From Treponema sp. (lineage in GTDB: Bacteria > Spirochaetota > Spirochaetia > Treponematales > Breznakiellaceae), in NCBI GenBank assembly GCA_031258505.1, contig JAIRMT010000013.1:1-47969 (forward strand): a stretch of DNA of 47,969 nt, given 5' to 3'. Under the pieces are notes generated by a model that searched no databases, was not told where the DNA came from, and saw nothing but the letters and a program-made list of their open reading frames with translations. Positions 9,652 through 43,766 of the stretch are shown here, piece by piece (positions within the stretch are counted from its first letter, which is position 1; every line of letters begins with the position of its first letter). The position numbers and the translations under genes were made by a program.

Positions 9652-10460
9652 GGATTGAACGCCCAGTTCCTTTAGGAACTAACGCCTAGTTCCTTAGGGG
9701 AACTAACACCTAGTTCCTCTAGGAACTAACACCTCGTTCCTCTAGGAACTAACACCTAGTTCCTTATGGGAACTAACACCTAGTTCCTTAGGGGAACTAA
9801 CACCTAGTTCCTCTAGGAACTAACACCTAGTTCCTTTAAGGAACTAACGCCTAGTTCCTTAGGGGAACTAACACCTCGTTCCTTAGGGGAACTAACGCCC
9901 AGTTCCTTAGGGGAACTAACGCCCAGTTCCTTTAGGAACTAACGCCTAGTTCCTTTAGGAACTAACACCCTGATCCTAGAGGAACTAACGCCTCGTTCCT
10001 TAGGGGAACTAACCGCTAGTTCCTTAGGGGAACTAACACCCTGATCCTCTAGGAACTGATACCTAGTTCCTTTAGGAACTAACACCTAGTTCCTCTAGGA
10101 ACTAACACCTAGTTCCTTATGGGAACTAACGCCTAGTTCCTTATGGGAACTAACGCCTAGTTCCTTATAGGAACTAACGCCTAGTTCCTTATGGGAACTA
10201 ACACCCTGATCCTCTAGGAACTAACACCCTGATCCTCTAGGAACTAACGCCCAGTTCCTTTAGGAACTAACCGCTAGTTCCTCTAGGAACTAACCACTAG
10301 TTCCTCTAGGAACTAACGCCTAGTTCCTTATGGGAACTAACACCTAGTTCCTCTAGGAACTAACACCTCGTTCCTTATGGGAACTAACACCTCGTTCCTT
10401 ATGGGAACTAACACCCTGATCCTCTAGGAACTAACACCCTGATCCTCTAGGAACTAACAC
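9652..10460. repeat. Tandem array of about 34 palindromic units with a 23-24 bp period
   Basis: The unit is GGAACTAAC[A/G]CC[T/C][A/C]GTTCC plus a 4-5 nt linker (TTTA, TCTA, TTAGG, TTATG). I counted 33 full units plus degenerate ends. TAG/TAA stops occur in every unit, and the ORF track has no ORF of 60 aa or more across it. Confidence 0.95.
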
Positions 10461-10524
10461 AGTCGGCGTGGCGACCTTCATTTTTGAGTAAGGTTGTTAC
10501 CTTTTCGATATTTTGGGGGAATGG

Positions 10525-10643
10525 TAACTCATGTTACGCAGGAAGAAAAAATGGTAAGAATTGGTCATCGAATGGACGCTAATATACGCGAATAGGTCAT
10601 TTCTCTAAAGAAGATTCGCGTTCATTCGCGTAATTCGATGATC
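10525..10643. repeat. Right copy of the inverted repeat of at least 119 bp (partner 1..119)
   Basis: See feature 1..119. It lies between the palindromic array and the ispG stop. Confidence 0.85.
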
Positions 10644-10688
10644 TTTTTCTTTCCGGTGCGTAAGGTGAATGGTAAGTCAGAATTTGAA

Positions 10689-11801
10689 CTATCTTTTCGC
10701 GCCAGCTTCCCCCAGCATTTCCCGCCACGCCTCGTCCGCGTCCCTTGCGTCTATCGTGCGCAGCAGTTCCCCGCGCCGGAACAACATTACCTTGTCGCCA
10801 ACGCCCGTGATGCCGAGGTCTGCCGAGCGCGCCTCGCCGGGGCCGTTCACTACGCACCCCATTACCGCGATGGTCAGCGGCTTGTCCAGCGCGTATAGCG
10901 TGGTTTTCCAGCGCTCGGTGAAGGCGTGCGTGTCAAAGCTGTTTCTGCCGCAGCGGGGACACGAGATGATTGTTACGCCATTGCGCGGAACACGGTCAGA
11001 GGCTAGGGTGGCGAGGATTTCTCTGGCGGCAATGACTTCGTTCTCCATCGTGTCAGAGAGCGAGACACGGATTGTATCGCCGATGCCGGTGGAAAGCAGC
11101 GAGTGCAGGGCAATGGTGTTCCGTACCACACCAGCGATGAGGGGACCGGCTTCAGTAACGCCGATGTGGAGTGGCGCGTCAGTGCGGTCGGCAAGGAGGC
11201 GGTTTGCGGCGATGGTGTCAGAGACAGAAGAGGCTTTCATTGAGACGAGTACCTTGTCAAAGGCGAAGTCGCGGAAGATGGCAAGTTCACGTTCTGCGGC
11301 CTGTACCAGCGCTTCCACACGGCTGAGACGCTTTTCGTCAACCTGAATGTGGAGGTCTTGCGGCAGACTTCCAGCGTTCAAGCCAATACGGATGGGGACG
11401 CCTGCGGCGGCGGCTTTCTCCAGCACTTGGGCGGTTTTGTCTTTGCCACCGATGTTACCGGGGTTCAGGCGGATTTTGGCTATTGGGAAGTCAAGGCAGC
11501 GAAGCGCGATTTTGTAGTTGAAGTGTATGTCTGCTACCAGCGGCATGGAGACCATGCCAGCCAGGGTTCCTATGACTTCGGCGGCGTCCATGTCTGGCAC
11601 GGCAAAACGCAATAAGCCGCATCCCATGTCTTGTAATGCGGCTATGCGTTTGACGATGGCTTCGCCAGATGCGCCTTCGATGTCCGTAAAATGAAGGCGG
11701 TCTTTCCACATCGTTTGTATAACGATGGGTAGACCGCCGCCGATAGAAACGGCAGAGACGTTTGCTCTGCCGCCTATTGTTATGGTTCGGGAAAGCCGCA
11801 C
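10689..11801 (-). CDS. ispG: 4-hydroxy-3-methylbut-2-en-1-yl diphosphate synthase (MEP pathway)
   Basis: 370 aa. It has the typical IspG N-terminus (IGG..PI.IQTM), the NPGNIG motif and a C-terminal [4Fe-4S] CPRCGR...GCVVNGPGE. It starts 6 nt after the V-ATPase K gene. Confidence 0.92.
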   Translation of the reverse strand: MRLSRTITIGGRANVSAVSIGGGLPIVIQTMWKDRLHFTDIEGASGEAIVKRIAALQDMGCGLLRFAVPDMDAAEVIGTLAGMVSMPLVADIHFNYKIALRCLDFPIAKIRLNPGNIGGKDKTAQVLEKAAAAGVPIRIGLNAGSLPQDLHIQVDEKRLSRVEALVQAAERELAIFRDFAFDKVLVSMKASSVSDTIAANRLLADRTDAPLHIGVTEAGPLIAGVVRNTIALHSLLSTGIGDTIRVSLSDTMENEVIAAREILATLASDRVPRNGVTIISCPRCGRNSFDTHAFTERWKTTLYALDKPLTIAVMGCVVNGPGEARSADLGITGVGDKVMLFRRGELLRTIDARDADEAWREMLGEAGAKR

Positions 11802-11807
11802 GGTTTG

Positions 11808-12239
11808 CTAGAGGCTGACCATTGAGAGTACCATCGCAAAGAGCGCGACGGTTTCGCAGATGCCGACAACCGAGATGTACTGTGCAAAGCCCTTACCGGT
11901 TTCGCCCTGTGCATCGGAGGCTGCAGCGCCTGCCTGACCCTGCGCGATTGCCGAGAATGCCATTGCCAGACCTGAGCCGATACCAAAGCCTAAGTAGAGC
12001 CAGCCTTGGTCAGGGTTTGCCAGCGCTGCAGCTTTTATCTGACCCATGAGAATGAACCCGTAAAACGTCTGGGTTAAGGGTGCGCCAGCAAAGGTAACCA
12101 GTGTCATGGGTGCGGGTTTGTTGGCAATGTAACACCGCTTCCACGCGCCTATTGCCGATTGCCCGGCAATGCCGATACCGATTGCTGAACCTATTGCCGC
12201 AATACCCATTACAAGACCTGCGCCTAATAATCCTAACAT
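11808..12239 (-). CDS. ntpK: V-type ATPase proteolipid subunit K
   Basis: 143 aa, glycine/alanine-rich, four predicted TM helices. It is the last gene of the V-ATPase operon. Confidence 0.88.
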   Translation of the reverse strand: MLGLLGAGLVMGIAAIGSAIGIGIAGQSAIGAWKRCYIANKPAPMTLVTFAGAPLTQTFYGFILMGQIKAAALANPDQGWLYLGFGIGSGLAMAFSAIAQGQAGAAASDAQGETGKGFAQYISVVGICETVALFAMVLSMVSL

Positions 12240-12309
12240 GTTAAACTCCTTCTATAATCTGCAAGTTTAAAGCTTGGTAAAGACTTGGCTTTACCAGAAA
12301 CTCATTGCA

Positions 12310-14148
12310 TTAAATTTTAACCGTTTTACCAAACGGTTTATACATAAAGCCTGACCAGGTAAGCCCTAAATGCCCGGAGAATTCTAGGGTATTCAGCCGC
12401 ACACCGTGAACAAGCACCGACAACACATTGAGTACGACATTCAAGCCATGCCCAAAGACTAAAAGAATGATGCCCATAAAGATTAAAAAGTTTCCTAAGA
12501 GGGGGCCTGCCATAGTATTCACGGTCGATGAAATCGACGCGCCAGCAAGCCCTACAGCCCAGAGACGGATGTAGGACATGATGTCCGAGAACACGTTAGT
12601 AATGCCCAGTACCACTGAGATGATGTTCTTAAAACTGTACAAGATGGACTGCCCCAGATTGCCCTCATAACCAGCGAACACAAACGTAAGGAAGAAGCCG
12701 CCGCCTAAGAGGTACAGCGACGCTGGCAAAAGGGGTATCTGCCGGTAGCTGTTACTGACCACGAGGAAAAGCACAAGGTTGAACATTCCGATGAGCATGG
12801 CAAGGGAGCCTAGTTCAGCGAACAGTTTTAAGGACTTGATGTTGCGAAAGAAACCTTTGATGTGCGCAATGCCGAGTTGCAGGAGCGCAAGTGAGAAACA
12901 GAAGATTTGCAGGTTTTGATCAACGATAGCCTTTTGCGCCACGCCTTTTGCCGCTTCCGCACTGGAAAGCGCTGGTAACGAGATACTTCGCAGGATTTCT
13001 GGCAGCTTCGCCGCATCAATGCCGAACCATGTGCAGGTAATAATACCCCAGGCGATATTGGATAGGCTGAGTAGTCCCAGCATTTTAAGCGCGGCGGGAA
13101 CGCCTTGAGCCGCAGTCTTGGCAATACCGATGATGGCGATAATACCAAGTATCGCGCCATAGCCTGCATCCCCGAAAATCATGCCGAAAAATATGCAGAA
13201 GAACAGCAGGAACCAGCCAGATATGTCTACTTCACGGTAGCCCGGCACTACTTCTAGGAAGTCGGTGAGCGGGTAGATGAGGCTGGCGAGTTTGTTGTTC
13301 TTGAGCAGGGTCGGTACTGCATCTTCTTCGGACGGGTCGGCTATTGCCAATGCCCAGCCGTTTTCGGCGGCGGCGCGTTTCAGCACGCCAACGTCGTCCT
13401 TTGGCGCAAAACCAGTGAGCCAGGAAATGCCTGTGCTAAGGGAATTTGCGCCCGGGCTAACGCTGTCCATGCTTGCCTTCGCGGTTTCAAACTCAATGTT
13501 TCGCGCCAGGGTCTTTAGCTCGTCCTCAATACTGTTTTTATGAGCGGCAAGCATTGCAAAGCGTTTCTCAAGGTCTGCCAGTTTTGTCTGAATGTTCTTT
13601 ATGAGCGTGCGCATTTCAGACAGAGATTTTTCGGGCAGGGCAAAGGGCGTCTCACCGGTGATTTCGTGATCCAGCGCCACGCCGTATACCTTAACCTTGT
13701 CCCGAAACAGGGTAATAAAACGCTGTTCTTTGTCCAGAGACTCATACGCCTTGTAGGACAATTCATAGGGGATAAGAGTGAGTCCCTGCTTGACCAGCTC
13801 TTTCAAGGCAGCGGGGTTGAAATCCCCCCACTTCTCAACGCGGCTCTCTTCTTTGCCAAGCGACAAAACCTGTTCCTGAAGCGTCTTCTTTTCGTTGTCC
13901 ATACCCAAGACCTCGGTAACTAGGTCTGAGATAGACGCTTTTGAATCAGTTTCTGCGGCTTTATAAGACCGCAGAAGTCCGAGCGCTGTTTCCGCCTTTG
14001 CCTTGCGGTCGAGCTGCTTTGAGAGACCGTCGCTGGCAACAGGACGCGACTCAATGTGCAACAAGCCCAAGTCACGGAGTTTGGCAAGCGATGCGTCGCG
14101 GGTTTTATCCATAACCACGATGGAGATTTTCTTCATTGGTACTATCAT
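12310..14148 (-). CDS. ntpI: V-type ATPase subunit I (membrane stator/a-subunit)
   Basis: 612 aa with a soluble N-terminal half and a polytopic C-terminal half. Operon position is between D and K. Confidence 0.88.
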   Translation of the reverse strand: MIVPMKKISIVVMDKTRDASLAKLRDLGLLHIESRPVASDGLSKQLDRKAKAETALGLLRSYKAAETDSKASISDLVTEVLGMDNEKKTLQEQVLSLGKEESRVEKWGDFNPAALKELVKQGLTLIPYELSYKAYESLDKEQRFITLFRDKVKVYGVALDHEITGETPFALPEKSLSEMRTLIKNIQTKLADLEKRFAMLAAHKNSIEDELKTLARNIEFETAKASMDSVSPGANSLSTGISWLTGFAPKDDVGVLKRAAAENGWALAIADPSEEDAVPTLLKNNKLASLIYPLTDFLEVVPGYREVDISGWFLLFFCIFFGMIFGDAGYGAILGIIAIIGIAKTAAQGVPAALKMLGLLSLSNIAWGIITCTWFGIDAAKLPEILRSISLPALSSAEAAKGVAQKAIVDQNLQIFCFSLALLQLGIAHIKGFFRNIKSLKLFAELGSLAMLIGMFNLVLFLVVSNSYRQIPLLPASLYLLGGGFFLTFVFAGYEGNLGQSILYSFKNIISVVLGITNVFSDIMSYIRLWAVGLAGASISSTVNTMAGPLLGNFLIFMGIILLVFGHGLNVVLNVLSVLVHGVRLNTLEFSGHLGLTWSGFMYKPFGKTVKI

Positions 14149-14747
14149 TGGGCAGCCCTCTGCATACCACGTTTGGCGATCTTGCCGCGAACCACTGCCG
14201 CAGTCTGCTGATCACCGAGGTATACCTGAATTTTCTTGATATTCCCTGTAGTTTCGGGAATCTTGATCTTCTCAAACAGGTTGACTCGCTGAGTCGTTAC
14301 CCGCAGTTCATGCTCCAGCCGCTTGCGCTGTTCCTCGAGGGTCTGCGCCTCAAGGTCAAGCAAGAGTACCTGCTTCATGCGCTCCACAGCTGCGTCAAGC
14401 CAGAGCGGGGTACGGACGAGGTCGTAAGGCGTGATTTCAAAGTCAGCGCCATGAAAGACAGGGATTGTTACGCCCGCAATGTTTCCCTCAGAAGTCCGCA
14501 GACTGGTGATTCGGAGTATGTCTGGGGTGAAAAAGCCCTTCTCGCCGTAGACCGCGATCCATGCCTTGAAGGTTTCATCAATCCGCTTTTTTTCGTCGAG
14601 CAGTTCTTTGATACGCGACTCTGTGGTTCTGATTTCTGCCTGAAGCTGTTGTTTCTTGAGCATGAGCGTAGGCAGATAACGCTGAAACATTTTCAGCGAA
14701 TCTTTCTGCTTTTTAAGCTCATTCTTCGTCAGCTTGATCTTTGCCAT
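14145..14747 (-). CDS. ntpD: V-type ATPase subunit D
   Basis: 200 aa, with a coiled-coil N-terminus (KLTKNELKKQKDSLKMFQRYLPTL). It overlaps the start of subunit I. Confidence 0.88.
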   Translation of the reverse strand: MAKIKLTKNELKKQKDSLKMFQRYLPTLMLKKQQLQAEIRTTESRIKELLDEKKRIDETFKAWIAVYGEKGFFTPDILRITSLRTSEGNIAGVTIPVFHGADFEITPYDLVRTPLWLDAAVERMKQVLLLDLEAQTLEEQRKRLEHELRVTTQRVNLFEKIKIPETTGNIKKIQVYLGDQQTAAVVRGKIAKRGMQRAAQ

Positions 14748-14754
14748 GGCGACC

Positions 14755-16053
14755 TCAGTTCTTCTTGGGCCAGAACTGGTTGATCAGTTCAGTCCGCAGG
14801 CCGGTTTCTTCTGGTGTGAAGCAATCGGCGAGGATTTCCCACCCCTGGTCCAGGGCGTGTTCCAGCGGGATGTTAACCGAAAGGTCCATCATCTTGCTTT
14901 CAAAATGCTCGCCGTATTTAAGGAGCTTCTCATCCCAGTTGGTCATCATAAAGCCCATGGCCTTTTTCTCAAGCGTGTCCTTGTACGCGGCGTAGAGCCG
15001 AATCATGCCGTCCATGATAGCGCGGTGGTCCTTGCGGGTCTTGTTGTTTACCTGCTGTTTTAAGCGCGACAACGAACCAAACGGTTCAATGCGCCCGTTC
15101 TTCAGGTAGTACTGGCCTTCGGTGATATAACCTGTGTTATCCGGCACCGGATGGGTTACATCGTCACCAGGCATCGTGGTTACGCCAAGAACGGTAATGG
15201 AACCAGCAGTATCGAAGTCAACCGCTTTTTCGTAACGGGACGCGAGTTGGCTGTAAAGGTCGCCTGGATAACCACGGTTTGACGGAACCTGCTCCTGTAT
15301 AATGGAGATTTCTTTCATGGCATCGGCGAAGTTCGTCATGTCGGTCAAGAGGACCAGCACATCCTTGCCCTGCAAGGCGAACTGCTCGGCAACCGCCAGC
15401 GACATATCGGGGATCATGAGGCACTCGACAGTGGGGTCGCTCGCCGTATGCACAAACATCACGGTGCGGGAAAGCGCGCCCCCTTCCTCCAGTGTATCCT
15501 TGAAAAACAGATAGTCATCATACTTTAGACCCATTCCGCCTAAAATGATAACGTCAACCTCAGCCTGCATTGCGATACGCGCCAAGAGTTCGTTGTACGG
15601 TTCACCAGACACCGAGAAGATTGGCAGTTTCTGGGAAACGACCAGCGTGTTAAACATGTCTATCATGGGGATACCGGTACGGATCATACGGCGTGGGATG
15701 ATGCGCTGCGCAGGATTCACCGACGGCCCCCCGATGGGTATCAGATTCTCGTGGAGCGCCGGTCCCCTGTCGCGGGGAGCGCCTGAACCGGAGAACACGC
15801 GCCCCATGAGGTTGTCAGAGAACGAGACCTGCATGGGGTGTCCGAGGAAGCGTACCGTGTCGCCGGTAGAGATACCGCGCCCGCCCGCGAACACTTGCAG
15901 GGAAACGATGTCGTTTTCCAGTCGGTTTACCTCGGCAAGGGATATGCCGAAAGCAGTGTCAACTTCCGCGAGGTCGCCGTAGCGAATGCCCTCGGCTTTC
16001 ACCGTAATAACGCTACCGGTGATGGATTCTATCTTGCTATATACCTTTTTCAT
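14755..16053 (-). CDS. ntpB: V-type ATPase subunit B
   Basis: 432 aa, non-catalytic A/B-family nucleotide-binding fold. Confidence 0.92.
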
Positions 16054-16063
16054 CTATGCCACC

Positions 16064-17824
16064 CTATGCCAAAAGTTTTTCCACTGTCTTATCCAGACCC
16101 TGGGAACGCTCAGTTACCGCGTCTGTGATTTCTTTTTCAAGAAGCTTGAACTCCTCACTCTTCCAAGGCGTGCCATTGTAATCCAGGAACTTCTGCCGCA
16201 GATGGTTAAACCATGTACGCGCCTCAGCTTTCTCTGTGAAAGTAAGCTTTGACCCCAGGATTTGCAGAATGACAAGGAAGATGTGATTCTGCCGCTCAGG
16301 ACTGACCGCAGAGTCAACCGGATTAAATGAATCCTGCTGCATATACACCGCATCAAGGAAATCGCCCTTGAGGTACACGATGTAGTCGTCAAGACTCGTT
16401 CCCTCCTCACCCACGACTTTCATCATTTGCTCGATCTCGCTCCCGCGATGGATAAAACTGTAAGCGTACCATACGCGCTTTGGGTCAATCGTGCTTTTGT
16501 ACTTTGACCACGAATCCAGCGGGTGAATAGCCGGGTACTTGCGGGCGTCGGAACGCTCACGCGACAGTCCATGAAATGCACCCACGACTTTCAGCGTTGC
16601 CTGCGTTACCGGCTCCTCGAAGTTACCGCCAGCGGGACTGACCGTACCGCCAATGGTAACTGACCCCAGCGCCCCGTCCTTGAGCCGTACCAGCCCTGCC
16701 CGCTCGTAAAAGCTGGCAATGGTTGATTCAAGGTAGGCGGGAAAAGCCTCCTCTCCAGGAATTTCTTCTAGGCGTCCTGACATTTCGCGCATAGCCTGCG
16801 CCCAGCGGCTTGTTGAGTCAGCCAGCAAGAGAATGTGCAAGCCCATCTGCCGATAGTATTCGGCAAGCGTTACCGCCGTGTACACCGATGCTTCACGCGC
16901 TGCGACAGGCATGGACGATGTGTTACAGATGATCACGGTGCGTTCCATAAGGGAACGGCCTGTTTTGGGATCAATAAGTTCCGGGAACTCTTTGAGGGTT
17001 TCCACGACCTCACCAGCGCGCTCGCCACAGGCCGCGACAATCACAATGTCCACATCCGCGTTACGGCTGGTAACGTGCTGGATAACGGTCTTGCCCGCGC
17101 CGAATGGTCCGGGGATACAGTAGGTTCCGCCACGCGCCACAGGGAAGAAGGTGTCGATGAGCCGGAGCTTCGTCAACATCGGGTCTTCCGGCTTGAGCCG
17201 TTCCTCGTAACAGTCAATCGCGCGCTTCACTGGCCAGTGAAACGACATTGTTACAGGAATTGTGTTACCCTTACCATCGCTCAGTTCCGCGATGGTCTCG
17301 CGTATTGTGTATGAACCCGCCGCTTTTATTGACGAAACGGTATACGAGCCATACATGGTGAATGGCACCATAATGCGGTGGGTAAAAGCGCCTTCCGGCA
17401 CGGTTCCCAGCGTATCGGCACGTTCCACATGGTCGCCGACCTTTGCTATGGGCGTGAAATCCCACTTACGGTCATCTGACAGGGGGTCAAGATAAATCCC
17501 CCGCTCCAGAAAGTATCCGGCGGTTTCGGCCAGTTTAGGCAGAGGGTTTTGCAGACCGTCGTAGACCTGGCCCAGAAGCCCTGGACCCAATTCAACTGCC
17601 AGCATATTCCCTGAAAACTCAACCTCGTCTCCGATAGCGATCCCCTTGGTGATCTCGAACACCTGCATCTGGGATATATCGCCCCGAATACGGATAACCT
17701 CGCCCTTGAGCCTTTTGTCCTCAACCTTGACATAGCCGACTTCATTCATGGAGACGGCACTGTCGAAGCGGACGCTCACCATATTGCCGTTAACGGCGAC
17801 AATTTTTCCTTTGGTTCCGGTCAT
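16064..17824 (-). CDS. ntpA: V-type ATPase catalytic subunit A
   Basis: 586 aa. It has the Walker A motif GPFGAGKTV and the non-homologous insert typical of A subunits. Confidence 0.93.
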   Translation of the reverse strand: MTGTKGKIVAVNGNMVSVRFDSAVSMNEVGYVKVEDKRLKGEVIRIRGDISQMQVFEITKGIAIGDEVEFSGNMLAVELGPGLLGQVYDGLQNPLPKLAETAGYFLERGIYLDPLSDDRKWDFTPIAKVGDHVERADTLGTVPEGAFTHRIMVPFTMYGSYTVSSIKAAGSYTIRETIAELSDGKGNTIPVTMSFHWPVKRAIDCYEERLKPEDPMLTKLRLIDTFFPVARGGTYCIPGPFGAGKTVIQHVTSRNADVDIVIVAACGERAGEVVETLKEFPELIDPKTGRSLMERTVIICNTSSMPVAAREASVYTAVTLAEYYRQMGLHILLLADSTSRWAQAMREMSGRLEEIPGEEAFPAYLESTIASFYERAGLVRLKDGALGSVTIGGTVSPAGGNFEEPVTQATLKVVGAFHGLSRERSDARKYPAIHPLDSWSKYKSTIDPKRVWYAYSFIHRGSEIEQMMKVVGEEGTSLDDYIVYLKGDFLDAVYMQQDSFNPVDSAVSPERQNHIFLVILQILGSKLTFTEKAEARTWFNHLRQKFLDYNGTPWKSEEFKLLEKEITDAVTERSQGLDKTVEKLLA

Positions 17825-17827
17825 TTG

Positions 17828-18406
17828 TTATTTCTCCACACCTTTTGAGGCAGACGCCAGAATAGCGTCATAAAGCCCCTTGTATTCTGCGAAGCCCTCT
17901 TCAACCTTGAACGCAGCCCTTCGTTCCATGAGGAGCAGCTTGAGAAGATAGGCATATATCATATTAACACTGAACGAGTCCAGTCCCTGCCTGGCCTCGA
18001 TAGCGTTCCACCGCGCCTGATCAATGAACAGCTCTGCTTCCAGCGGCGATTCCAGCGCGAAAGCAGCCTTTGCCGCCAGTGCCGCGTCAGCCGGAGAGTC
18101 CGGCGGCTCTATCGACGCGCCATTGTCCCGCTTCTGGGCGCGATACCGCGCGAGATTGAGGCGCAGGGTACGCTCCCAAGCTCGCCATTCATTGATAAAA
18201 CGCGACGAAGTAGGCGCAGGCGGTTCCACGTAACTTTTTTCTTGGTCAGCGCCATGTTCCGGGTCTAGCGAACACCCGTCAAGCAGAGCCGCATCTCCAG
18301 CACTGAGCGCATGAGCGCAAAGCGCTCTAAACGCCTGTGAAGACATGGGCGACTGCTGTCCATAGACCAGATAGGGAAGCTGGGCGACTAGATAGTAATA
18401 AGCCAC
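17828..18406 (-). CDS. DUF2764-like protein (C-subunit-like accessory of Bacteroidetes/spirochaete-type V-ATPase operons)
   Basis: 192 aa with N-terminal YYYLVAQLPYL. Its position between E and A matches the E-DUF2764-A-B-D-I-K operon layout. Confidence 0.7.
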   Translation of the reverse strand: MAYYYLVAQLPYLVYGQQSPMSSQAFRALCAHALSAGDAALLDGCSLDPEHGADQEKSYVEPPAPTSSRFINEWRAWERTLRLNLARYRAQKRDNGASIEPPDSPADAALAAKAAFALESPLEAELFIDQARWNAIEARQGLDSFSVNMIYAYLLKLLLMERRAAFKVEEGFAEYKGLYDAILASASKGVEK

Positions 18407-18409
18407 CGC

Positions 18410-19051
18410 TTAGGTTCCCACAGAATTAGCAACTTTGTTGCCGACGCTTACAGCGCTGCTAAGGATCGCCGCCAGCCGCGGGTTAAGGTAGGCGGAGAGT
18501 AGTTCTGCAACCGACTCGGCGGAGAAGTCGTAGTAAGCAGAGCCATCTTTGTTGGCGATACGGAAACCTGCGCCCAGTTTCCGATCTGATTTGAGTTCAA
18601 CGCCTTTTTTCAGCTCAACGCTGAGTTTGTCATTGAACCAGTCCTGGAGCTTCTTGAGGTCTGCCTCGCTAACAATGATGTCTAGCGTGTCGCCGCCCTT
18701 GCTTGCCCAAGCCTTCAAAATCTCAGGGAGCGTTGCTTTCAAAGCATCCTCGGTATAGGATGCGGCGAGCTCCCTCGCCACAATCTTCTCCAGCAATGCT
18801 GTGATTTCCGCCTTGAATGCCAGTACAAGGTTCCGTGACGCCTGCTCCAGCGCTGCGACGCCGGCTTTCTCTGAGCGTTCAGCGTCAGCCTTACTTTTGG
18901 CGATGATGGCGTCCGCTTCTTTCTGCGCGGCCTCGATAATACGTTTAGCCTCGCCCTCGGCTTGAGACTTGAGTTTAGCGGCCTCAGTTGCCGCACCCTC
19001 AATCCCGTCCTTCTTTATCCTATCGATCAATTCCTGAAGTTGAATGTCCAT
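18410..19051 (-). CDS. ntpE: V-type ATPase subunit E
   Basis: 213 aa with a charged coiled-coil N-terminus rich in A/E/K. It is the first gene of the operon. Confidence 0.85.
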   Translation of the reverse strand: MDIQLQELIDRIKKDGIEGAATEAAKLKSQAEGEAKRIIEAAQKEADAIIAKSKADAERSEKAGVAALEQASRNLVLAFKAEITALLEKIVARELAASYTEDALKATLPEILKAWASKGGDTLDIIVSEADLKKLQDWFNDKLSVELKKGVELKSDRKLGAGFRIANKDGSAYYDFSAESVAELLSAYLNPRLAAILSSAVSVGNKVANSVGT

Positions 19052-21745: not shown

Positions 21746-21780
21746 TACAGCAGAGGGCAGATTGGTCTGCCGTTATTTGA
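21421..21780 (+). pseudogene. 5' fragment of the NitT/TauT-type permease gene (about the first 108 codons of 40486..41502, then a divergent tail). The ORF is still open.
   Basis: MSELSISAAPKGLSVDKD... parallels MSELSISTASNGLSVGKD... of the full-length gene. Homology ends near 21745 and the stop is at 21778-21780. Confidence 0.7.
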
Positions 21781-32831: not shown

Positions 32832-32930
32832 TCTGTAGACTATGGAGCGTAGTCTGTAGACTATGGAGCGTAGTCTGTAGACTATGAGGCGTAGTCTGTA
32901 GACTATGAGGCGTAGTCTGTAGACTATGAC
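32747..32930. repeat. 21-bp tandem repeat, about 9 units in two subfamilies
   Basis: Four GTCTACAGACAAyGG... units (coding) are followed by five GTCTGTAGACTATGrrGCGTA units (non-coding). The junction holds the lipoprotein stop codon. Confidence 0.92.
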
Positions 32931-34579: not shown

Positions 34580-34580
34580 C

Positions 34581-35762
34581 ATGAACTCTATTATAGAAGA
34601 AAGCCGCCTCATTAGTCTCACCAACGAGGAGATTGCCCGCTACAGCCGCCATCTTCTCTTGCTAGAAGTCGGCATTGAGGGACAGAAACGGCTCAAGGCG
34701 GCGAAGGTCTTGCTTGTGGGAACTGGCGGCCTCGGCGCTCCACTTGCGCTTTACCTTGCCGCCAGTGGCGTGGGGACTATCGGCATCGTGGACTTTGACT
34801 TTGTGGAGGAATCAAACCTTCAGCGACAGGTGATCCATTCCACACGGGATGTGGGTCGTCCTAAAGTCGCGTCAGCGCAGGAGCGCATCAAGGGCATAAA
34901 TCCAAAGTGCAATGTGATAACGTATAACACTATGCTCAACAGCGGCAACGCCCTTGACATCATCAAAGAATACGACATTGTTGCTGACGGTACTGACAAT
35001 TACCAGACCCGCTACCTTGTGAACGATGCCTGCGTGTTATTGGGAAAGCCCAATGTGTATGGCTCGGTATTTCAATTTGAAGGGCAGGTTTCGGTTTTCT
35101 TCGCCAAAGAAGGACCTTGCTACCGCTGCCTGTACCCGGAACCGCCGCCGCCGGGACTCGTACCCTCCTGCGCCGAAGGCGGCGTTGTCGGGGTATTGCC
35201 CGGCATCATCGGCTGTATTCAGGCAAACGAAGTAATCAAACTCATTACCGGTTTCCGGGAAGAGGATGGCGCAAGCCTTATCGGGCGGCTGCTTCTTTTT
35301 GACGCATGGAAAATGAAGTTTCGGGAACTCGTTCTGGACAAAGAAAGCGCCTGCCCTATCTGCGGCGCAAACCCCACAATCCATGAGTTGATTGATTACG
35401 AGCAATTCTGCGGCCTTAAAAAAAGCGATGAGGCGGAACCCATAGAAACCATCAGCGCAACAGAACTGAAATCCCGGCTGGATGCGGGCGTTCCAGTACA
35501 AATCATCGACATCCGGGAACCTCACGAGCGGGCAATCGCAAAGTTTCCCAACGCAAAGTCAATCCCTCTGGGGCAGATGACCCGCCGCATTGACGAGTTT
35601 GACCCAGCGATTGACTCGGTATTCATCTGTAAAATTGGACAGCGGAGTGTTTTCGCCATTCACGCCTTACGCGAGGCTGGCTACAAGGGCCGGCTGCTCA
35701 ACTTGAAAGACGGTGTGAACGGCTGGGCGCGGGAAGTGGACAGGCTGCTGCCTGTTTATTAA
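34581..35762 (+). CDS. moeZ: MoeZ/MoeB-like E1 adenylyltransferase with C-terminal rhodanese domain
   Basis: Start at 34581, 1 nt after the CysO stop. It has the nucleotide loop VGTGGLGAP, CxxC pairs (CYRC, CPIC) and a rhodanese active-site loop (CKIGQRS). Confidence 0.88.
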   Translation: MNSIIEESRLISLTNEEIARYSRHLLLLEVGIEGQKRLKAAKVLLVGTGGLGAPLALYLAASGVGTIGIVDFDFVEESNLQRQVIHSTRDVGRPKVASAQERIKGINPKCNVITYNTMLNSGNALDIIKEYDIVADGTDNYQTRYLVNDACVLLGKPNVYGSVFQFEGQVSVFFAKEGPCYRCLYPEPPPPGLVPSCAEGGVVGVLPGIIGCIQANEVIKLITGFREEDGASLIGRLLLFDAWKMKFRELVLDKESACPICGANPTIHELIDYEQFCGLKKSDEAEPIETISATELKSRLDAGVPVQIIDIREPHERAIAKFPNAKSIPLGQMTRRIDEFDPAIDSVFICKIGQRSVFAIHALREAGYKGRLLNLKDGVNGWAREVDRLLPVY

Positions 35763-35780
35763 ATAGAAAGGAGAATGATT

Positions 35781-36734
35781 ATGGCAGAAAAGACAATCAA
35801 CGCATTGGGACGGAGCGCGGCATATCAGCTTGCGAATGTTACAAAAACACCGCCCCAGTTTGGCTCCCTTACCCCTAAATGGCTTACAAGGGTACTGGAA
35901 TTCAAAGGACTTGAAGCGGGTATTTACCGGGTTAATCGGGTCGCTGAGGGCGAAACGCCTCTTGACGTTCTGTGCAGCCAGGACCCGAAAAAAGTTGAGA
36001 TTCCCCAGGGCTTCGTGGATTACGTTTCAAAACCGCGGGAGTATCAACTCAGCTCAATATCCACGATTATCAATGTGGACACTAAAGTTTCAGATGTCTA
36101 CAGTTCGCCGTATGACCAGACTCAGGAACAGATAAAGCTGGCAGTTGAAAGCCTCAAGGAGCGGCAGGAGAGTCAAATCATCAACAGCGATGATTACGGC
36201 CTCCTCAAAAACGCCGTGGACAGTCAGCGTATACAAACCCGCTACGGCCGCCCCATGCCCGACGACTTGGATGAACTCATCACCAAAGTATGGAAAGAGC
36301 CGAGTTTCTTCCTGGCTCATCCTCGCGCTATCGCCGCCTTTGAGCGGGAATGCACCCGTCGGGGCGTCCCGCCGGTAACGGTAACTATTGCCGGAGGAAT
36401 TTTTATCGCGTGGCGGGGCATTCCTCTTATTCCCACGGACAAGCTCTTTGTGGACGGCCTCAAGAACCCCAAAGCCAAAACCGGCAAGACCAATATCCTG
36501 TTAGTCCGTACCGGTGAAGCCAAACGCGGTGTTGTGGGCCTCTACCAGGCTGGCGTTCCGGGCGAACAGAGTCGCGGTCTTTCGGTGCGTTTTCGGGGCA
36601 TTGACGATAATGGCGTTGCCTCGTACCTCCTCTCGGTGTACTGCTCCGCAGCCATTCTCGCTGATGATGCTGTGGCCGTGCTGGAAGACGTGGAGGTAGG
36701 AGATTACTATGAATATACCCAACAGCCGGTTTAG
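35781..36734 (+). CDS. Family 2A encapsulin shell protein (SrpI-like, HK97-fold nanocompartment)
   Basis: Recalled SrpI-family motifs are present: GIYRVNRV, PREYQLSSIST, KVSDVYSSPYDQ, KVWKEPSFFLAHPRAIAAFERECTRRGVPP, WRGIPLIPTDK and ILLVRTGEAKRGVVGLYQ. The ATG at 35781 has AAGGAG 7 nt upstream. Confidence 0.8.
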   Translation: MAEKTINALGRSAAYQLANVTKTPPQFGSLTPKWLTRVLEFKGLEAGIYRVNRVAEGETPLDVLCSQDPKKVEIPQGFVDYVSKPREYQLSSISTIINVDTKVSDVYSSPYDQTQEQIKLAVESLKERQESQIINSDDYGLLKNAVDSQRIQTRYGRPMPDDLDELITKVWKEPSFFLAHPRAIAAFERECTRRGVPPVTVTIAGGIFIAWRGIPLIPTDKLFVDGLKNPKAKTGKTNILLVRTGEAKRGVVGLYQAGVPGEQSRGLSVRFRGIDDNGVASYLLSVYCSAAILADDAVAVLEDVEVGDYYEYTQQPV

Positions 36735-38184
36735 TTTTTCAGAGTGGGGCTTGCCGTCTGCGGCAGAGATAGCCGCGTTAGCCGCGAACTATTTCCCTGA
36801 ATTCGGCAATGCGCCCGCAGGCAGGTCCCCGCAGCCAGTGTCAGAGGTCATTTCGCCTAACGCCTATTCGCCGGTTGTGCTTCCCAAAGAAAAAAAGCTG
36901 GAGCATAGCGGTTCCGCAGCGCGTCAAGCCAGCGGCGCCAGACTCTACGCCAAAACACAGGGCGTTTCAGTCGGTCATCGTTCCCTTGATTCCATACGCG
37001 CTGATTTCCCCATTCTTGCGGAAAAGGTATCAGGCGGCCATGACCTGGTGTGGTTTGATAACGCGGCTACTACCCAGCGACCCAGGCAGGTAATTGAGCG
37101 CCTGTCCTATTATTATGAACACGAGAATTCCAATGTCCATCGAGGAGCGCATGAACTGGCGGCACGTTCTACCAACGCCTACGAGGAAGCCAGGGCGAAG
37201 ATTGCCTGCTTTTTAGGCGCGCCCTCGCCGGACAATATTGTGTATGTACGGGGAACTACTGAAGGGATAAATCTTGTGGCACAGGCTTATGTCAAACCGC
37301 TGCTCAAAGCTGGGGACGAGATAATTCTTACCATGCTGGAACACCACGCCAACATTGTCCCCTGGCAGCTTATCGCCGCTGAAACTGGAGCGGTTCTGCG
37401 GGTTGCGCCGATTGACCAAAGCGGCCAGCTCATTCTTTCGGAGTACGAAAAACTCTTTAACAGCCGCACCCGCTTTGCCGCAGTAACCCATGTGTCAAAC
37501 GCTTTAGGCACGATTGCGCCAGTGGAGGAACTGGTACACATCGCTCATGCCCGCGGAGTGCGAATCCTCATTGACGGGGCGCAGTCTGTGTCGCATATTC
37601 CGGTGAATGTCGCGGCTCTGGACACTGATTTTTTCGTGTTTTCGGGGCATAAGATTTTCGGGCCAACAGGTATAGGGGCGCTTTATGGTAAAAGCGATGT
37701 TCTGGAAGCAGCCCAGCCATACCAAGGTGGAGGTAACATGATTTTCGATGTTACCTTTGAGCGTACCCTCTATCACAAGCCGCCCGCGAAATTTGAGGCA
37801 GGTACTGGCAGCATTGCGGACGCGGTGGGTCTGGGCGCGGCGCTGGACTATGTTTCGGAGATTGGCATACAGAATATCGCTGCATGGGAACACGAACTCC
37901 TGCAATACGGCATGAAAGAACTTGCGAAGATTCCCGGCCTGCGTCTCATTGGAACAGCCGCTGAAAAGGCGAGCGTCCTCTCCTTCGTGCTTGAAGGACA
38001 CAGCCTTGAGGAAGTAGGTAAACATCTCTCAAGTCGGGGAATCGCCGTCCGCGCCGGGCATCACTGCGCCCAGCCAGTACACCGATTCTTTGGCCTTGAA
38101 GGAACCGTTCGCCCCTCTGTTGCCTTGTACAACACGTTGGGCGAGATTGACAAGCTTGTAACGGCAGTAGGAGAGCTGGTATGA
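36709..38184 (+). CDS. Cysteine desulfurase (SufS/CsdA-like) with N-terminal disordered cargo-loading extension
   Basis: The catalytic domain starts around residue 95 (FPILAEK...VWFDNAATTQRP) and includes HHANIVPW and SGHKIFGPTGIGALYG. The Pro/Ala/Ser-rich N-terminal ~90 aa contain AEIAALAANYFPEF. AGGAG SD. Confidence 0.88.
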   Translation: MNIPNSRFSFSEWGLPSAAEIAALAANYFPEFGNAPAGRSPQPVSEVISPNAYSPVVLPKEKKLEHSGSAARQASGARLYAKTQGVSVGHRSLDSIRADFPILAEKVSGGHDLVWFDNAATTQRPRQVIERLSYYYEHENSNVHRGAHELAARSTNAYEEARAKIACFLGAPSPDNIVYVRGTTEGINLVAQAYVKPLLKAGDEIILTMLEHHANIVPWQLIAAETGAVLRVAPIDQSGQLILSEYEKLFNSRTRFAAVTHVSNALGTIAPVEELVHIAHARGVRILIDGAQSVSHIPVNVAALDTDFFVFSGHKIFGPTGIGALYGKSDVLEAAQPYQGGGNMIFDVTFERTLYHKPPAKFEAGTGSIADAVGLGAALDYVSEIGIQNIAAWEHELLQYGMKELAKIPGLRLIGTAAEKASVLSFVLEGHSLEEVGKHLSSRGIAVRAGHHCAQPVHRFFGLEGTVRPSVALYNTLGEIDKLVTAVGELV

Positions 38185-40376: not shown

Positions 40377-40834
40377 TCAAGCGATTCAAGGTTTTTTATA
40401 AAAAACCTTGAAACCTATTGACACTTGATGTTTTACAAGATACATTCTTAGTAAATCAGTAGGTATTATAAGCAAAGGAGCTTTTATGTCGGAACTAAGT
40501 ATAAGCACTGCGTCAAATGGCCTAAGCGTTGGCAAAGACTCGGCGCTGTCCATCCATTTTGACTGGCGCACTCTGATCCCACTCGTCTCGGTCGCCTTTA
40601 CCCAGGTACTGCATACCGCGCTGCCAGTAGCGTCAACGTATCGCACCAAGGTTCTACCGTGGTTCACCTGGTTCAACGTCGTTGCTATCGGGGTACTGGC
40701 AATACTCGCGGTGGTGAGTCTCTTTAACAGCCGGTATCGGGAACGGTTCACGTATAAATCATGGTTTCTGGGGGTAGCGTTTCTTCTGCTCAACTTGTAT
40801 AACCTCATCACCGTCAAGTTCGACCTGATTCCCA
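40377..40834 (+). repeat. Copy C of the dispersed direct repeat (the functional copy, continuous with the full-length permease)
   Basis: It aligns with 21311-21745 (copy A) and with copy B from about 28250 to 28545. Confidence 0.85.
40387..40446 (+). promoter_or_regulatory. Perfect 24-bp palindrome plus sigma70-like promoter (copy C)
   Basis: CAAGGTTTTTTATAAAAAACCTTG at 40387-40410. TTGACA at 40418-40423, a 17-nt spacer, and TACATT at 40441-40446. AAGGAG at 40475-40480. Confidence 0.55.
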
Positions 40835-41502
40835 GCCTCTATTTCCCATCGCCGGAACGGATCGTGTATGTATTTCTCACAGACTGGTTCTTTATACTGC
40901 GCTGCCTAGTCTACTCGCTCCGTTTGTTGCTGGGCGGCTTCTTCCTCGGCGCGCTGCTTGGGGTGCTAACCGGTACGCTCATCGGCTGGAGCCAGCGCTG
41001 GAACTACTGGATCATGCCCTGTATCCGAATCGTGGGACCGATTCCATCAACCGCCTGGATACCCATCGCGCTGGTGGTCTTCACAAAAGCGACCGATGCA
41101 GCGCTGTTCCTCATCGCCCTGGGAGTCTGGTTCCCCACAACGGTACTCACCAGTTCAGGCATCCTCAATGTGCGGAAAAGTTACTTCGAGGTTTCAAGCA
41201 CCTTGGGAGCGAGCAATCTGCGGAATGTGCTTTCCATCGCCCTACCCGGCGCCGCGCCAAACATCTTCGCGGGCCTGTTTAACGGCACATCGTCGTCATT
41301 CCTAACCCTTATGGCCGCTGAAATGATCGGCTGTAAGTTCGGCATTGGCTGGTACATCAACTGGCAGAGGGAAACCATGGCGTATTCACAGGTGTACGCA
41401 GCGCTCATCGTGATTGCCATAACCTTTTCACTCCTCATTAACCTCCAGTTCAAGATTCGCAATCGCGTCCTGAGTTGGCAGAAAGGCACAATTCGGTGGT
41501 AG
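40486..41502 (+). CDS. ABC transporter permease (NitT/TauT family) with an extra N-terminal membrane extension of about 110 aa
   Basis: 338 aa. The C-terminal ~230 aa resemble permease 29639..30508. The N-terminal extension is the part duplicated in copies A and B. Confidence 0.88.
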   Translation: MSELSISTASNGLSVGKDSALSIHFDWRTLIPLVSVAFTQVLHTALPVASTYRTKVLPWFTWFNVVAIGVLAILAVVSLFNSRYRERFTYKSWFLGVAFLLLNLYNLITVKFDLIPSLYFPSPERIVYVFLTDWFFILRCLVYSLRLLLGGFFLGALLGVLTGTLIGWSQRWNYWIMPCIRIVGPIPSTAWIPIALVVFTKATDAALFLIALGVWFPTTVLTSSGILNVRKSYFEVSSTLGASNLRNVLSIALPGAAPNIFAGLFNGTSSSFLTLMAAEMIGCKFGIGWYINWQRETMAYSQVYAALIVIAITFSLLINLQFKIRNRVLSWQKGTIRW

Positions 41503-41510
41503 GTGAAAAT

Positions 41511-42305
41511 ATGCAAACAGCAGTACATGGCGGAACCATACGGATCAACGGTGTAACTAAAACCTTTCCTCAAGAAGGCGCGGCTGATATTACCGTGCTG
41601 GATAACATCAGCCTTGTTTTCAAAAGCGGCGAGTTTATTTCTCTCATCGGCCCATCCGGATGCGGGAAGTCAACCCTGCTGCGGCTCATCGCTGGACTTA
41701 CCCAAAGCGATAGCGGCTCACTTTTTTTGGATGACGCCGAGATACAAGCGCCGGGACATGAGCGAGGGCTGGTGTTTCAGGACCCAACCCTGTTCCCGTG
41801 GAAAACCATCTGGGAGAACATCGCCTTCGGGCTGCGGGCGCGTGGGGTCTATCGTGAAGAAAAACAGAACATTCCCGGGTTTTTCAAGCTCGTGGGGCTT
41901 GAGGGCTTTGAGAAGTCCTATCCTCACCACCTTTCCGGCGGTATGGCGCAGAGGGCGTCGCTGGCCAGGACCCTCATCAATAACCCAAAAGCGCTCCTGC
42001 TTGACGAGCCTCTGGGCGCTCTTGACGCCTTTACCCGCATGAATATGCAGGACGAGATTCTCAAGATATGGGAAGAACGTCGAATGACTATGGTCATGGT
42101 TACGCATGATGTTGATGAGGCGATTTACATGGCTGACCGCATCGTGGTCATGTCAGCGCGCCCGGCTAAGATTGAAAAGATGATTACAGTGGAGATTGGC
42201 CGTCCGCGACAGCGCGACGACCCGGACTTCCTCGACCTGCGAGCGAAGATACTACAAATCCTGCACTTCGCGGGCGCAAAGCAGGAACCGGAGTACAACT
42301 TGTGA
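41511..42305 (+). CDS. ABC transporter ATP-binding protein (SsuB/TauB-like)
   Basis: Start at 41511 (MQTAVHGG). Walker [10 protein letters not shown], signature LSGGMAQR and Walker B LLLDEPLGALD are present. Confidence 0.9.
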   Translation: MQTAVHGGTIRINGVTKTFPQEGAADITVLDNISLVFKSGEFISLIGPSGCGKSTLLRLIAGLTQSDSGSLFLDDAEIQAPGHERGLVFQDPTLFPWKTIWENIAFGLRARGVYREEKQNIPGFFKLVGLEGFEKSYPHHLSGGMAQRASLARTLINNPKALLLDEPLGALDAFTRMNMQDEILKIWEERRMTMVMVTHDVDEAIYMADRIVVMSARPAKIEKMITVEIGRPRQRDDPDFLDLRAKILQILHFAGAKQEPEYNL

Positions 42306-42354
42306 AAAAACCGTCGTTGACGGAGAACATCTTTTTAAGGAGAGGATATAAACT

Positions 42355-43380
42355 ATGAAAAAAGCTATCCTTTTGCTTTCATTGGTTTGCGTGGCGGTAC
42401 TTAGCGTCCACGCAAGAGGTCAGAATCAGGGAACTTCCGCTGCTGCAGCGGAAGACCCGAACTATGTGGTCAAGATCGGACGGTCAGTCTCCGTCGGTCT
42501 TTGTACTTCACCTTTCGTCATCGCCGAGCATTTCGGTTACTACGAGGAAGAGGGACTCAAGTGGGATTCTGTCGCTATTGAGACAGGTCAGGCCAACCTC
42601 CTGCTCACCACCGGCGCGGTTGATGTTACCAACAACCTTTTGGCCACGCTCATTCAGCCCATTGCCAATGGTCTTGACGTGAAGATTCCCCTGGGCATAC
42701 ACACGGGCTGCCAGAAGGTACTGGTACGCGTTGATTCTGATATACAAACGCCCGCAGACCTTCGCGGCAAGCGAATCGGCACAACCGGCATGGCATCCAG
42801 CGGCACGGTCATCACCCAGCGCTATCTCGCGGAACTAGGCATTGGCGTTACCGCCGATAACCTTGAGGTTGAGTGGCTGATCTATCAGCAGGCAGACCTC
42901 CCGTTGGCGCTTGAGCGGGGACAGGTTGACGCCATCGCGCTTGGAGACCCGACCGCTTACATCGTTGAGCAGGAAGGAAAGGCTAGGGTAATCATCAATC
43001 AGGCTACAGACGACTACCTCAAGGACGAATTCTGCTGTGTGGTAGTTGCTTCAGCCAACTTTGTGAAGGATCATCCCGAAGCTGCGGCAAAGTTCACCCG
43101 CGCTATTCAGAAAGCCGCAGCCTTTGTGCAGGAGAACCCTGATGAGACCGCCCGTATTCTTGATGAGCGAAAGTATGTGGCCGGCGATCCAGAGGTAAAC
43201 GCCGCCATACTCAAGACCTACAACTTTAGGGCTTCGGTGAGCGAGGCGGAAGTGGCGATTTCCCGTAATACGCGCGACCTCCAGAGAATCAATCTGGTGG
43301 ACAGCGACGTTGACCCCGACGCCCTTACGCGGAACGTCTTCATTGCCCTGCCCGGTGTGCCGGATTCACTGTATAAGTGA
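42355..43380 (+). CDS. ABC transporter substrate-binding protein (NMT1/SsuA-like)
   Basis: 341 aa with a signal peptide (MKKAILLLSLVCVAVLSVHA) and GGAGAGG SD. Confidence 0.8.
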   Translation: MKKAILLLSLVCVAVLSVHARGQNQGTSAAAAEDPNYVVKIGRSVSVGLCTSPFVIAEHFGYYEEEGLKWDSVAIETGQANLLLTTGAVDVTNNLLATLIQPIANGLDVKIPLGIHTGCQKVLVRVDSDIQTPADLRGKRIGTTGMASSGTVITQRYLAELGIGVTADNLEVEWLIYQQADLPLALERGQVDAIALGDPTAYIVEQEGKARVIINQATDDYLKDEFCCVVVASANFVKDHPEAAAKFTRAIQKAAAFVQENPDETARILDERKYVAGDPEVNAAILKTYNFRASVSEAEVAISRNTRDLQRINLVDSDVDPDALTRNVFIALPGVPDSLYK

Positions 43381-43408
43381 GGTTTTAGAAGTTAGCGCTG
43401 CAGTTTGA

Positions 43409-43439
43409 GGATTAACCGCAATACCTTTGCGGTTAATCC
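43409..43439 (+). terminator. Strong stem-loop after the SBP gene (putative terminator)
   Basis: GGATTAACCGCA-atacctt-TGCGGTTAATCC, a perfect 12-bp stem 28 nt after the stop. There is no U-tract, and it abuts the second repeat array. Confidence 0.4.
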
Positions 43440-43443
43440 CGTA

Positions 43444-43766
43444 GGAATGAGGCGTTAGTTCCCCTAAGGAACTAGGCGTTAGTTCCTAGAGGAACTAGGC
43501 GTTAGTTCCTCTAGGAACAGGGTGTTAGTTCCTAGAGGAACTAGGCGTTAGTTCCTCTAAGGAACGAGCGGTTAGTTCCCCTAAGGAACGAGGCGTTAGT
43601 TCCTAGAGGAACTAGGCGTTAGTTCCTATAAGGAACGAGGCGTTAGTTCCTAGAGGAACTAGGTGTTAGTTCCTAAAGGAACTAGGTGTTAGTTCCTAGA
43701 GGAACTAGGTGTTAGTTCCCATAAGGAACGAGGCGTTAGTTCCTAGAGGAACTAGGTGTTAGTTCC
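43444..43766. repeat. Second palindromic tandem array (14 units), inverted relative to 9652..10460
   Basis: The units GGAAC[T/G]AGG[C/T]GTTAGTTCC are the reverse complement of the GGAACTAAC[A/G]CCTAGTTCC unit in array 1. Linker types are the same. Confidence 0.93.

Follow-up and report, generated by a model that had tools for sequence, protein, structure and literature searches.

What does it mean that a 33-kb chromosomal block carrying housekeeping and sulfur-metabolism genes is enclosed by two arrays of one repeat in opposite orientations? The question is raised by contig JAIRMT010000013.1 of Treponema sp., a whole metagenome contig of 47,969 nt that was analysed at its full length and is called the window below. 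Two arrays of a 23-bp palindromic unit, array 1 (9658-10460) and array 2 (43443-43773), lie on the two sides of a block (10461-43442) which contains ispG and a V-type ATPase operon on one strand and a sulfur island on the other, and a nitrogenase-like operon headed by cysK lies beyond array 1. A preliminary description of this DNA proposed that recombination between the arrays would flip the block, uniting the island and the nitrogenase-like operon in one co-directional supercluster, and that the present layout may therefore be one state of an inversion, either ancestral or ongoing. Comparison with relatives supports the view that a real chromosomal inversion of 33 kb took place and that the window shows its derived state, with the arrays marking its end-points. 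Inversion at repeats is a textbook mechanism, the event is mechanistically ordinary and its kind is already known; the repeat element is unusual, and the arrangement is well documented.

Relative orientation of the two arrays

Tandem Repeats Finder describes array 1 as 34.2 copies of a 23-nt period with 86% matches, its plus-strand consensus being AACACCTAGTTCCTCTAGGAACT, and array 2 as 14.2 copies of the same period with 83% matches; array 1 also shows a higher-order period of 165 bp. The unit, 23 or 24 bp long, is a palindrome with arms of 7-8 bp (TAGTTCC and GGAACTA, 3 to 5 nt apart) followed by a spacer ACRCC. Single palindromes of this kind are found 42 times in the window (0.19 expected), all but one copy within the arrays, and the two-unit pattern is found 20 times, where shuffles predict 0.00.

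As had been claimed from the letters alone, the two array consensus sequences are reverse complements of each other, and the arrays are connected by 19 maximal exact inverted matches of at least 30 nt, the longest being 47 nt. The longest aligned inverted arms extend over 219 nt at 89% identity (10240-10458 versus 43501-43719), and three unit variants are identical between the arrays. Since inverted matches are present and direct-orientation matches of at least 18 nt between the arrays are absent, the relative orientation of these arrays of palindromic units is unambiguous. Array 1 has its sense on the minus strand, running from ispG through the array to cysK, and array 2 on the plus strand, running from SBP2, the second substrate-binding protein (SBP) gene of the island, through the array to a LiaF-like gene; both share one orientation relative to their own upstream gene. 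Array 1 is located upstream of the first cysK gene (cysK1), 74 nt from its start, and array 2 begins 62 nt past the stop codon of SBP2. The two arrays have different lengths and unit orders, and exact repeats reach at most 65 nt within array 1, 48 nt within array 2 and 47 nt between them.

Gene order in the window and in its relatives

The strand assignments of the preliminary description are borne out by Pfam. The nif-like operon (cysK1-radical SAM-K-D-H, 3872-9583) is on the minus strand, the island, from a NifX-like gene to the second ABC importer (20898-43380), is on the plus strand, and ispG with the V-ATPase operon (10689-19051, minus strand) lies between them. The geometry of the proposed flip is correct as well: turning 10461-43442 would set the NitT/TauT-type importer permease2-ATPase2-SBP2 (40486-43380, plus strand, SBP2 at 42355-43380) beside the array and cysK1 in a co-directional order. 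The nif-like operon deserves a more specific name. Among solved structures, its NifD-like protein (4758-6317) best matches MarD of the Rhodospirillum rubrum methylthio-alkane reductase (9FMG), with an E-value of 4.6e-61, the best true NifD being at 3e-32, and because the D subunit is nearer to MarD than to any true NifD, we refer to the operon as Mar-like.

The contiguous co-directional supercluster, which a synteny comparison was expected to reveal if the idea were right, is found in two independent contigs of relatives. In the first, a Treponema sp. metagenome-assembled genome (MAG) contig, L014, whose proteins are 72-91% identical to those of the window, the genes of the permease, ATPase, SBP, CysK, radical SAM protein, NifK, NifD and NifH are contiguous and co-directional, and the SBP-cysK spacer is 108 nt long and carries no array. 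The second, JAISAE010000060.1 / Ga0466704_243621 (30,465 nt), whose two ends are L017 and L019, encodes proteins 82-98% identical to those of the window (91-98% when the radical-SAM protein is left aside). One strand of this contig carries ispG and the V-ATPase genes, and the other carries, in this order, the TP_0813-like, deaminase, NifX, Fe-ADH, NlpA, MetN, MetI, aminotransferase, CGL, SAT, permease2, ATPase2 and SBP2 genes. A spacer of 919 nt follows SBP2, and after it comes cysK-radical SAM-K-D-H on the same strand. The spacer is filled by 23-bp arrays, 22 copies of AACCGCTCTGTTCAAAGTGGTTG and 7.7 copies of GACGAAGCGTTACGTTCAGGCGA, so that the predicted supercluster with a repeat array between the island and cysK actually exists in L019.

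As the contiguous layout is the one present in relatives, the supercluster is ancestral and the window represents a recent, derived inverted state. The order ispG, V-ATPase, TP_0813-like gene, deaminase, NifX is common to three relatives, and this conserved order, together with a GC content that is level throughout the window, argues that the block is not mobile. A composite transposon or mobile island was considered as an identity of the block and rejected, for there is no transposase or integrase and the gene order of the block is conserved in relatives. The result shows that synteny can verify what was first deduced from the raw sequence alone, namely inverted arrays, a flip that they might allow and the supercluster that it would restore. 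The comparison also fixes, for spirochaetes of the termite-gut type, an ancestral Mar-centred sulfur-salvage supercluster consisting of NifX, the Met importer, CGL, SAT, the sulfonate-type importer and cysK-marBKDH.

The arrays themselves have changed much faster than the genes. Read on the same sense strand, the second, cysK-proximal unit type of L019 and the unit of the window agree at 13-15 of 23 positions (p 0.002-0.05 in shuffles), and an array in this spacer is therefore older than the split of the two lineages; its sequence has turned over between them while the 23-bp period persisted. No 23-bp arrays like those of the window or of L019 were found in the loci of the remaining relatives. 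A fast-evolving palindromic minisatellite with a constant 23-bp period is therefore found at synteny breakpoints of two related genomes. Another array of L019, at 4157-5203, is unrelated: it is about 1 kb long, consists of about 50 units of 21 bp and is located exactly at the site of a 10-kb block of the window that extends from SBP1 to the cysteine desulfurase gene. From their positions, arrays appear to coincide with synteny breakpoints.

Breakpoints and the origin of the inversion

Breakpoint 1 is placed at 10456-10466, where array 1 is cut in the middle of a unit between GGAACTAACAC and AGTCGGCG, by the raw sequence and by homology to the relative L018; this homology 3' of ispG breaks off at a distance of 5 nt or less from the array 1 end. 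Breakpoint 2 is placed by the raw sequence at 43760-43780, where array 2 is also cut mid-unit, between AGTTCCTAG and GGAAGGCTTAG. The ispG-side and LiaF-side array ends are thus abrupt and complementary in phase (AGTTCCTAG followed by GGAAGG, and GCCGACT followed by GTGTTAGTTCC), and a single cut in one unit would produce such ends. The array ends on the SBP2 side and on the cysK side consist of degenerate, decayed units. The first unit of array 2 is degenerate and overlaps the SBP2-proximal flank (43381-43442, plus strand), which identifies this side as an 'old' array end, and the flank contains a hairpin, GAGGATTAACCGC...GCGGTTAATCC, that is conserved in L019. In the cysK1-proximal flank (9584-9657, minus strand) degenerate units continue until some 40 nt before the start codon.

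The origin that we favour, with a probability somewhat above even, is that a single ancestral spacer array was cut by the inversion, the inverted repeats being a consequence of the event and not its cause. In the ancestral order, an island ending with permease2-ATPase2-SBP2 would have been followed by the minisatellite spacer and by cysK-marB-K-D-H, all co-directional. One breakpoint would have fallen inside the SBP2-cysK minisatellite and the other about 40 nt downstream of ispG, if a later insertion of 179 nt is not counted. The flip would have left one part of the array on cysK (array 1, now beside ispG) and the rest on SBP2 (array 2, now beside the LiaF-like gene), and two parts of a single array split by a flip are automatically in inverted orientation. 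The trigger may have been the fragility of the hairpin-forming array. This origin agrees with the end of the L018 homology at array 1, with the complementary abrupt ends and with the fact that no relative has an array 3' of ispG: none is present in L017 (a tail of 315 nt), in L018 (a tail of 174 nt) or in L020, in which a convergent MMPL gene is located 54 nt past ispG.

Alternatively, two inverted arrays, one in the SBP2-cysK spacer and the other downstream of ispG, may have existed beforehand; RecA-dependent homologous recombination between the two would then have turned the block over and may be turning it both ways even now. Chromosomal inversions between inverted rrn operons, insertion sequence (IS) copies or prophages are known to depend on RecA and to need no dedicated recombinase. 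The window is similar to them in having a large block between inverted homologous sequences and an alternative orientation in relatives; it differs in that its repeats are a lineage-specific 23-bp palindromic minisatellite and are maybe the halves of one array cut by the inversion. The 19 exact inverted matches of 30-47 nt meet the RecA requirement of a few tens of bp and, with the arms of up to 219 nt, are enough for homologous recombination; they also imply that, however the block was inverted, RecA-type recombination could flip it back. Moreover, L019 has an inverted array pair around a block which is not inverted, and arrays that share their sense relative to an upstream gene would naturally be inverted when located 3' of divergent operons. 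However, the three relatives lack the array downstream of ispG that recombination between pre-existing arrays requires, and abrupt ends of complementary phase on the ispG and LiaF sides are not predicted by it. We therefore regard recombination of two pre-existing arrays as unlikely and favour the splitting of a single one. Under either of the two, the arrays mark the end-points of the inversion.

Several observations weigh against an inversion that cut one array. The complementary phase of the abrupt ends is only modest evidence, for its chance probability is about 0.1-0.4, depending on the reading of partial units, and a unit-by-unit comparison of the arrays, in which a signature of recombination or continuity was sought, gave only a weak tendency and no clear signal. 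In L019 the Mar-like operon, in its ancestral orientation, lies between two 23-bp arrays in mutually inverted orientation (11677-11852 and 17865-17983), the second of which, directly downstream of nifH, is the reverse complement of the GACGAAGCGTTACGTTCAGGCGA type and contains the end of the contig; inverted copies can thus pre-exist without a net inversion. None of L017, L018 and L020 has the reciprocal junction, in which ispG would adjoin the LiaF-like gene, so that a clean inversion with two breakpoints is only half documented. The L017 and L018 tails and the MMPL neighbour in L020 have no homology to the right (LiaF) flank of the window, and since the DNA downstream of ispG differs among these three relatives, the missing junction is a weak result. 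Lastly, the same-species fragments L001, L015 and L016 all end before the arrays and leave the layout of the window without a second contig that confirms it. The proposal that the present layout is one state of an inversion thus holds in its historical part, the window being the derived state by synteny, and is left incomplete by the absence of the reciprocal junction from the three relatives.

That the inversion is an artefact of assembly, the true genome being contiguous and the block mis-oriented or mis-joined at repeats, is very unlikely in our estimation. The window is an entire metagenome contig whose left end lies in a dispersed repeat, and contigs from other assemblies of the species end at the arrays or close to them. 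Exact repeats, however, are at most 47 nt between and at most 65 nt within the arrays; with repeats so short, each path from flank through array to flank is unique for ordinary reads and large k-mers, which makes mis-orientation unlikely. In addition, the arrays are unlike in length and unit order, and their mid-unit ends are joined to unique flanks.

A bolder reading is that the arrays are recurrent flip points in this Treponema lineage, at which blocks between inverted arrays, such as the 33-kb block in the window and the Mar-like operon in L019, invert back and forth. We consider this quite improbable. If true, the Mar-like operon would be re-wired between an importer transcript controlled by sulfur starvation and a constitutive V-ATPase/ispG transcript, and the arrays would constitute a recombinase-independent, minisatellite-based expression switch for a nitrogenase-like enzyme with a high energy cost. 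If the arrays are fragile or recombinogenic, they may be a source of operon re-wiring in uncultured symbionts and a practical cause of breaks in MAG assemblies.

The inversion may have affected the expression of the Mar-like operon, which is now downstream of ispG and no longer of the importer. A scan found no sigma-70-like promoter between array 1 and cysK, and the Mar-like operon is therefore probably transcribed through array 1 from the ispG side. The same two points, the change of the operon upstream of cysK-marBKDH and the lack of a detected promoter behind array 1, speak for a programmed invertible element, in which a site-specific recombinase switches the Mar-like operon between the importer unit and the ispG/V-ATPase unit, and the inverted arrays around the Mar-like operon of the close relative L019 would fit such an element too. 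Nevertheless, a search of the 45 window open reading frames (ORFs) against Pfam revealed no recombinase, invertase, integrase or transposase domain, and a 33-kb block with housekeeping operons is unlike known invertons, which are small promoter-bearing segments with short conserved repeats. Close relatives do not share the array sequence, and this speaks against a conserved site for a recombinase. Of all the explanations considered, a programmed element seems to us the least credible, and very unlikely.

Another possibility is that the arrays serve mainly as functional elements of DNA or RNA, either operators or decoys for a palindrome-binding regulator or transcript hairpins of the kind formed by bacterial interspersed mosaic elements (BIMEs), which would attenuate or stabilise the mRNA in the SBP-cysK interval, and that the position of the breakpoints in them is incidental. 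Each unit contains a palindrome of 18-19 bp. Read in the sense orientation, it forms an 8-bp stem followed by GUGUUAGUU, and such hairpins of 8-9 pairs are found 8 times in array 1 and 4 times in array 2. When terminator-like sites of every kind are counted, the region of array 1 has 19 (1.9 expected) and that of array 2 has 8 (1.2 expected). This hairpin excess is accompanied by folding z-scores of -4.8 to -5.3 for the window units. The orthologous L019 spacer is filled by arrays as well, and a Planctomycetota contig has the palindrome of the window units ahead of a MarR-family gene. On the other hand, the palindrome is absent from the other promoter regions of the island, no regulator gene is nearby, the L014 spacer is array-free at 108 nt, and the L019 arrays differ in sequence and fold no better than shuffles (z of -1.6 and +1.0). 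We consider a primarily functional role improbable, and the cutting of a spacer array by the inversion remains our preferred explanation.

The Planctomycetota contig (L003) is of some interest in itself: at 1610-1680 it contains a TTGACA box and two TAGTTCC-N3/4-GGAACTA palindromes 7 bp apart, followed directly by the MarR-family gene, and the pair is a putative double operator of this gene, to be taken as a lead only. Otherwise, the two-unit palindrome pattern gave isolated one- or two-site matches and no arrays in genome contigs (185,579 species) and metagenome contigs, and no match in viral contigs, plasmids and phages. Rfam at a looser E-value threshold returned only spurious matches to miRNA hairpins for the arrays.

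Repetitive extragenic palindromic (REP) sequences and BIMEs are imperfect palindromes of enterobacterial intergenic regions which form tandem clusters, for example downstream of malE and hisJ, and are hot spots of recombination and rearrangement. The window arrays resemble them as tandem imperfect palindromes outside genes that form hairpins and directly follow an SBP gene, within or between operons of transport and metabolism, and differ from them in being much longer and strictly periodic (14-34 units) and in a sequence that turns over completely between close relatives; in the 48 kb of the window only the two arrays occur, and no RAYT-like gene is seen there. Iteron and centromere-like arrays, such as the 22-bp iterons of R6K and the 43-bp repeats of F sopC with their internal inverted repeats, are also direct tandem repeats, and the window arrays share with them a period of about two helical turns and an internal inverted repeat. 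The window, however, has no rep or par genes nearby, its context is one of chromosomal housekeeping genes, and the arrays have no plasmid or phage match. Two other identities were rejected. The units are head-to-tail without spacers and no cas domains are found by Pfam, contrary to a CRISPR array; as for arrays of ECF-sigma or sigma-54 promoters, the spacing is unfit by inspection, and the sigma-70 scan found nothing within the arrays.

The Mar-like operon, the island and other repeats

Mar loci of Rhodospirillum rubrum and Rhodopseudomonas palustris contain nitrogenase-like B/H/D/K genes among genes of sulfur metabolism and sulfonate-type transport (bioRxiv 10.64898/2026.08.20.746119; PMC12552129). 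The operon of the window, judged by its sequence and context, appears to be of this methylthio-alkane reductase type and is predicted to reduce the C-S bonds of methylthio-alkanes: it has the same B/H/D/K set in the same kind of surroundings. It differs from these loci in its spirochaete host and in its gene order, cysK-B-K-D-H; in Treponema relatives the cluster is fused to a much larger island that includes the Met importer, and in the window it is split from this island by the inversion. On the minus strand Pfam assigns MCP (293-2485), an alpha/beta hydrolase between MCP and the NifH-like gene, NifH-like (3872-4750), NifD-like, NifK-like (6330-7685), the MarB-like radical SAM protein (7692-8639) and CysK (cysK1, 8636-9583); the assignment of the whole operon relies on Pfam and on the match to the MarD structure. 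The window comes from a Treponema of the termite-gut type: homologues of the NifD-like protein and of ispG are found in Treponema sp. MAGs, and ispG (10689-11801, minus strand) is 72-74% identical to its homologue in T. primitia ZAS-2. Look-ups of identical proteins for CysK1 and ispG, with the ORF starts chosen in this analysis, gave no match.

After the V-ATPase operon, which extends to 19051, come an unlabelled protein of 378 aa, whose counterpart in relatives carries PF27435 (TP_0813_N), and a deaminase, both on the plus strand. The island, on the same strand, starts with the NifX-like gene (20898), Fe-ADH, NlpA/MetQ, an OCD-family gene, MetN, MetI and an aminotransferase, and continues with an NMT1-type SBP, a permease, an ATPase, CysK, CysK/M, JAB-ThiS and ThiF-rhodanese; type 2A encapsulin SrpI, a cysteine desulfurase, a Cys/Met PLP enzyme and a hexapeptide acetyltransferase precede the second importer. 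Right of array 2 are the genes of the LiaF-like (44030), TPR and GHL10 proteins. Neither tRNA genes nor, at the gathering threshold, any Rfam family were found in the window.

The type 2A encapsulin, cysteine desulfurase and CysO-like thiocarboxylate genes are present in the window and not in L019. The stretch concerned, 33878-38184, encodes a JAB-ThiS fusion, ThiF-rhodanese, the SrpI-like encapsulin and the cysteine desulfurase, which has an N-terminal extension; the OCD-family gene (24064-25128) is likewise absent from L019. Between cysK2 and cysK3 lies a palindromic tandem array with a 21-bp period (32747-32928), with the cores GTCTACAGAC and GTCTGTAGAC.

A leader of about 450-570 nt exists in the island in three direct copies that are 78-94% identical (21176-21745, 28121-28544 and 40392-40834), each upstream of one operon. 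A pseudo-fragment of the permease2 N terminus is found in copies 1 and 2, and copy 2 also has a remnant of the NifX 3' end; these remnants lend further support to the contiguous ancestral layout and imply an older core, NifX-leader-permease2-ATPase2-SBP2-cysK-marBKDH, and the copies point to the capture of a promoter or leader by segmental duplication. A minus-strand ORF of 151 aa, at 21291-21746, is likely to be spurious. The copy at 40392-40834, the sole one searched against Rfam at the looser threshold, gave no match.

Downstream of ispG, at 10493-10671, is an insertion of about 179 nt resembling a miniature inverted-repeat transposable element (MITE), which has a 5-nt flanking duplication, CTTAC, is absent from L018 and folds into a long hairpin (z -4.5). 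It contains a promoter-like site at 10609-10581, on the minus strand, facing cysK1. Its 119-nt core (10525-10643) recurs in inverted orientation at the contig start (1-119) with 94% identity; a second inversion boundary at this inverted repeat was considered and rejected, a dispersed MITE-like insertion absent from L018 being the better explanation. The same-species contig L016 ends exactly at the edge of the MITE-like insertion, and thus the element is probably multi-copy in the genome. At the contig start the core is fused, at a stop codon, to a 136-nt direct duplicate of the NifH-like 3' end (116-251 versus 3871-4008, 96-100% identical), and the hydrolase-MCP pair (252-3870), being bracketed by direct repeats, may have arisen by insertion or segmental duplication. 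In L019 a tandem duplication of 218 bp (16658-17096, 95% identical) at the NifD/NifH boundary yields an extra 73-aa N-terminal fragment of NifH. Two perfect repeats are present in the right part of the window, one of 19 bp (2.1 copies, 44740-44778) within the 5' part of the TPR gene and the heptamer CTCCCGG (11.7 copies, 47840-47921) some 50 nt before the contig ends on the right.

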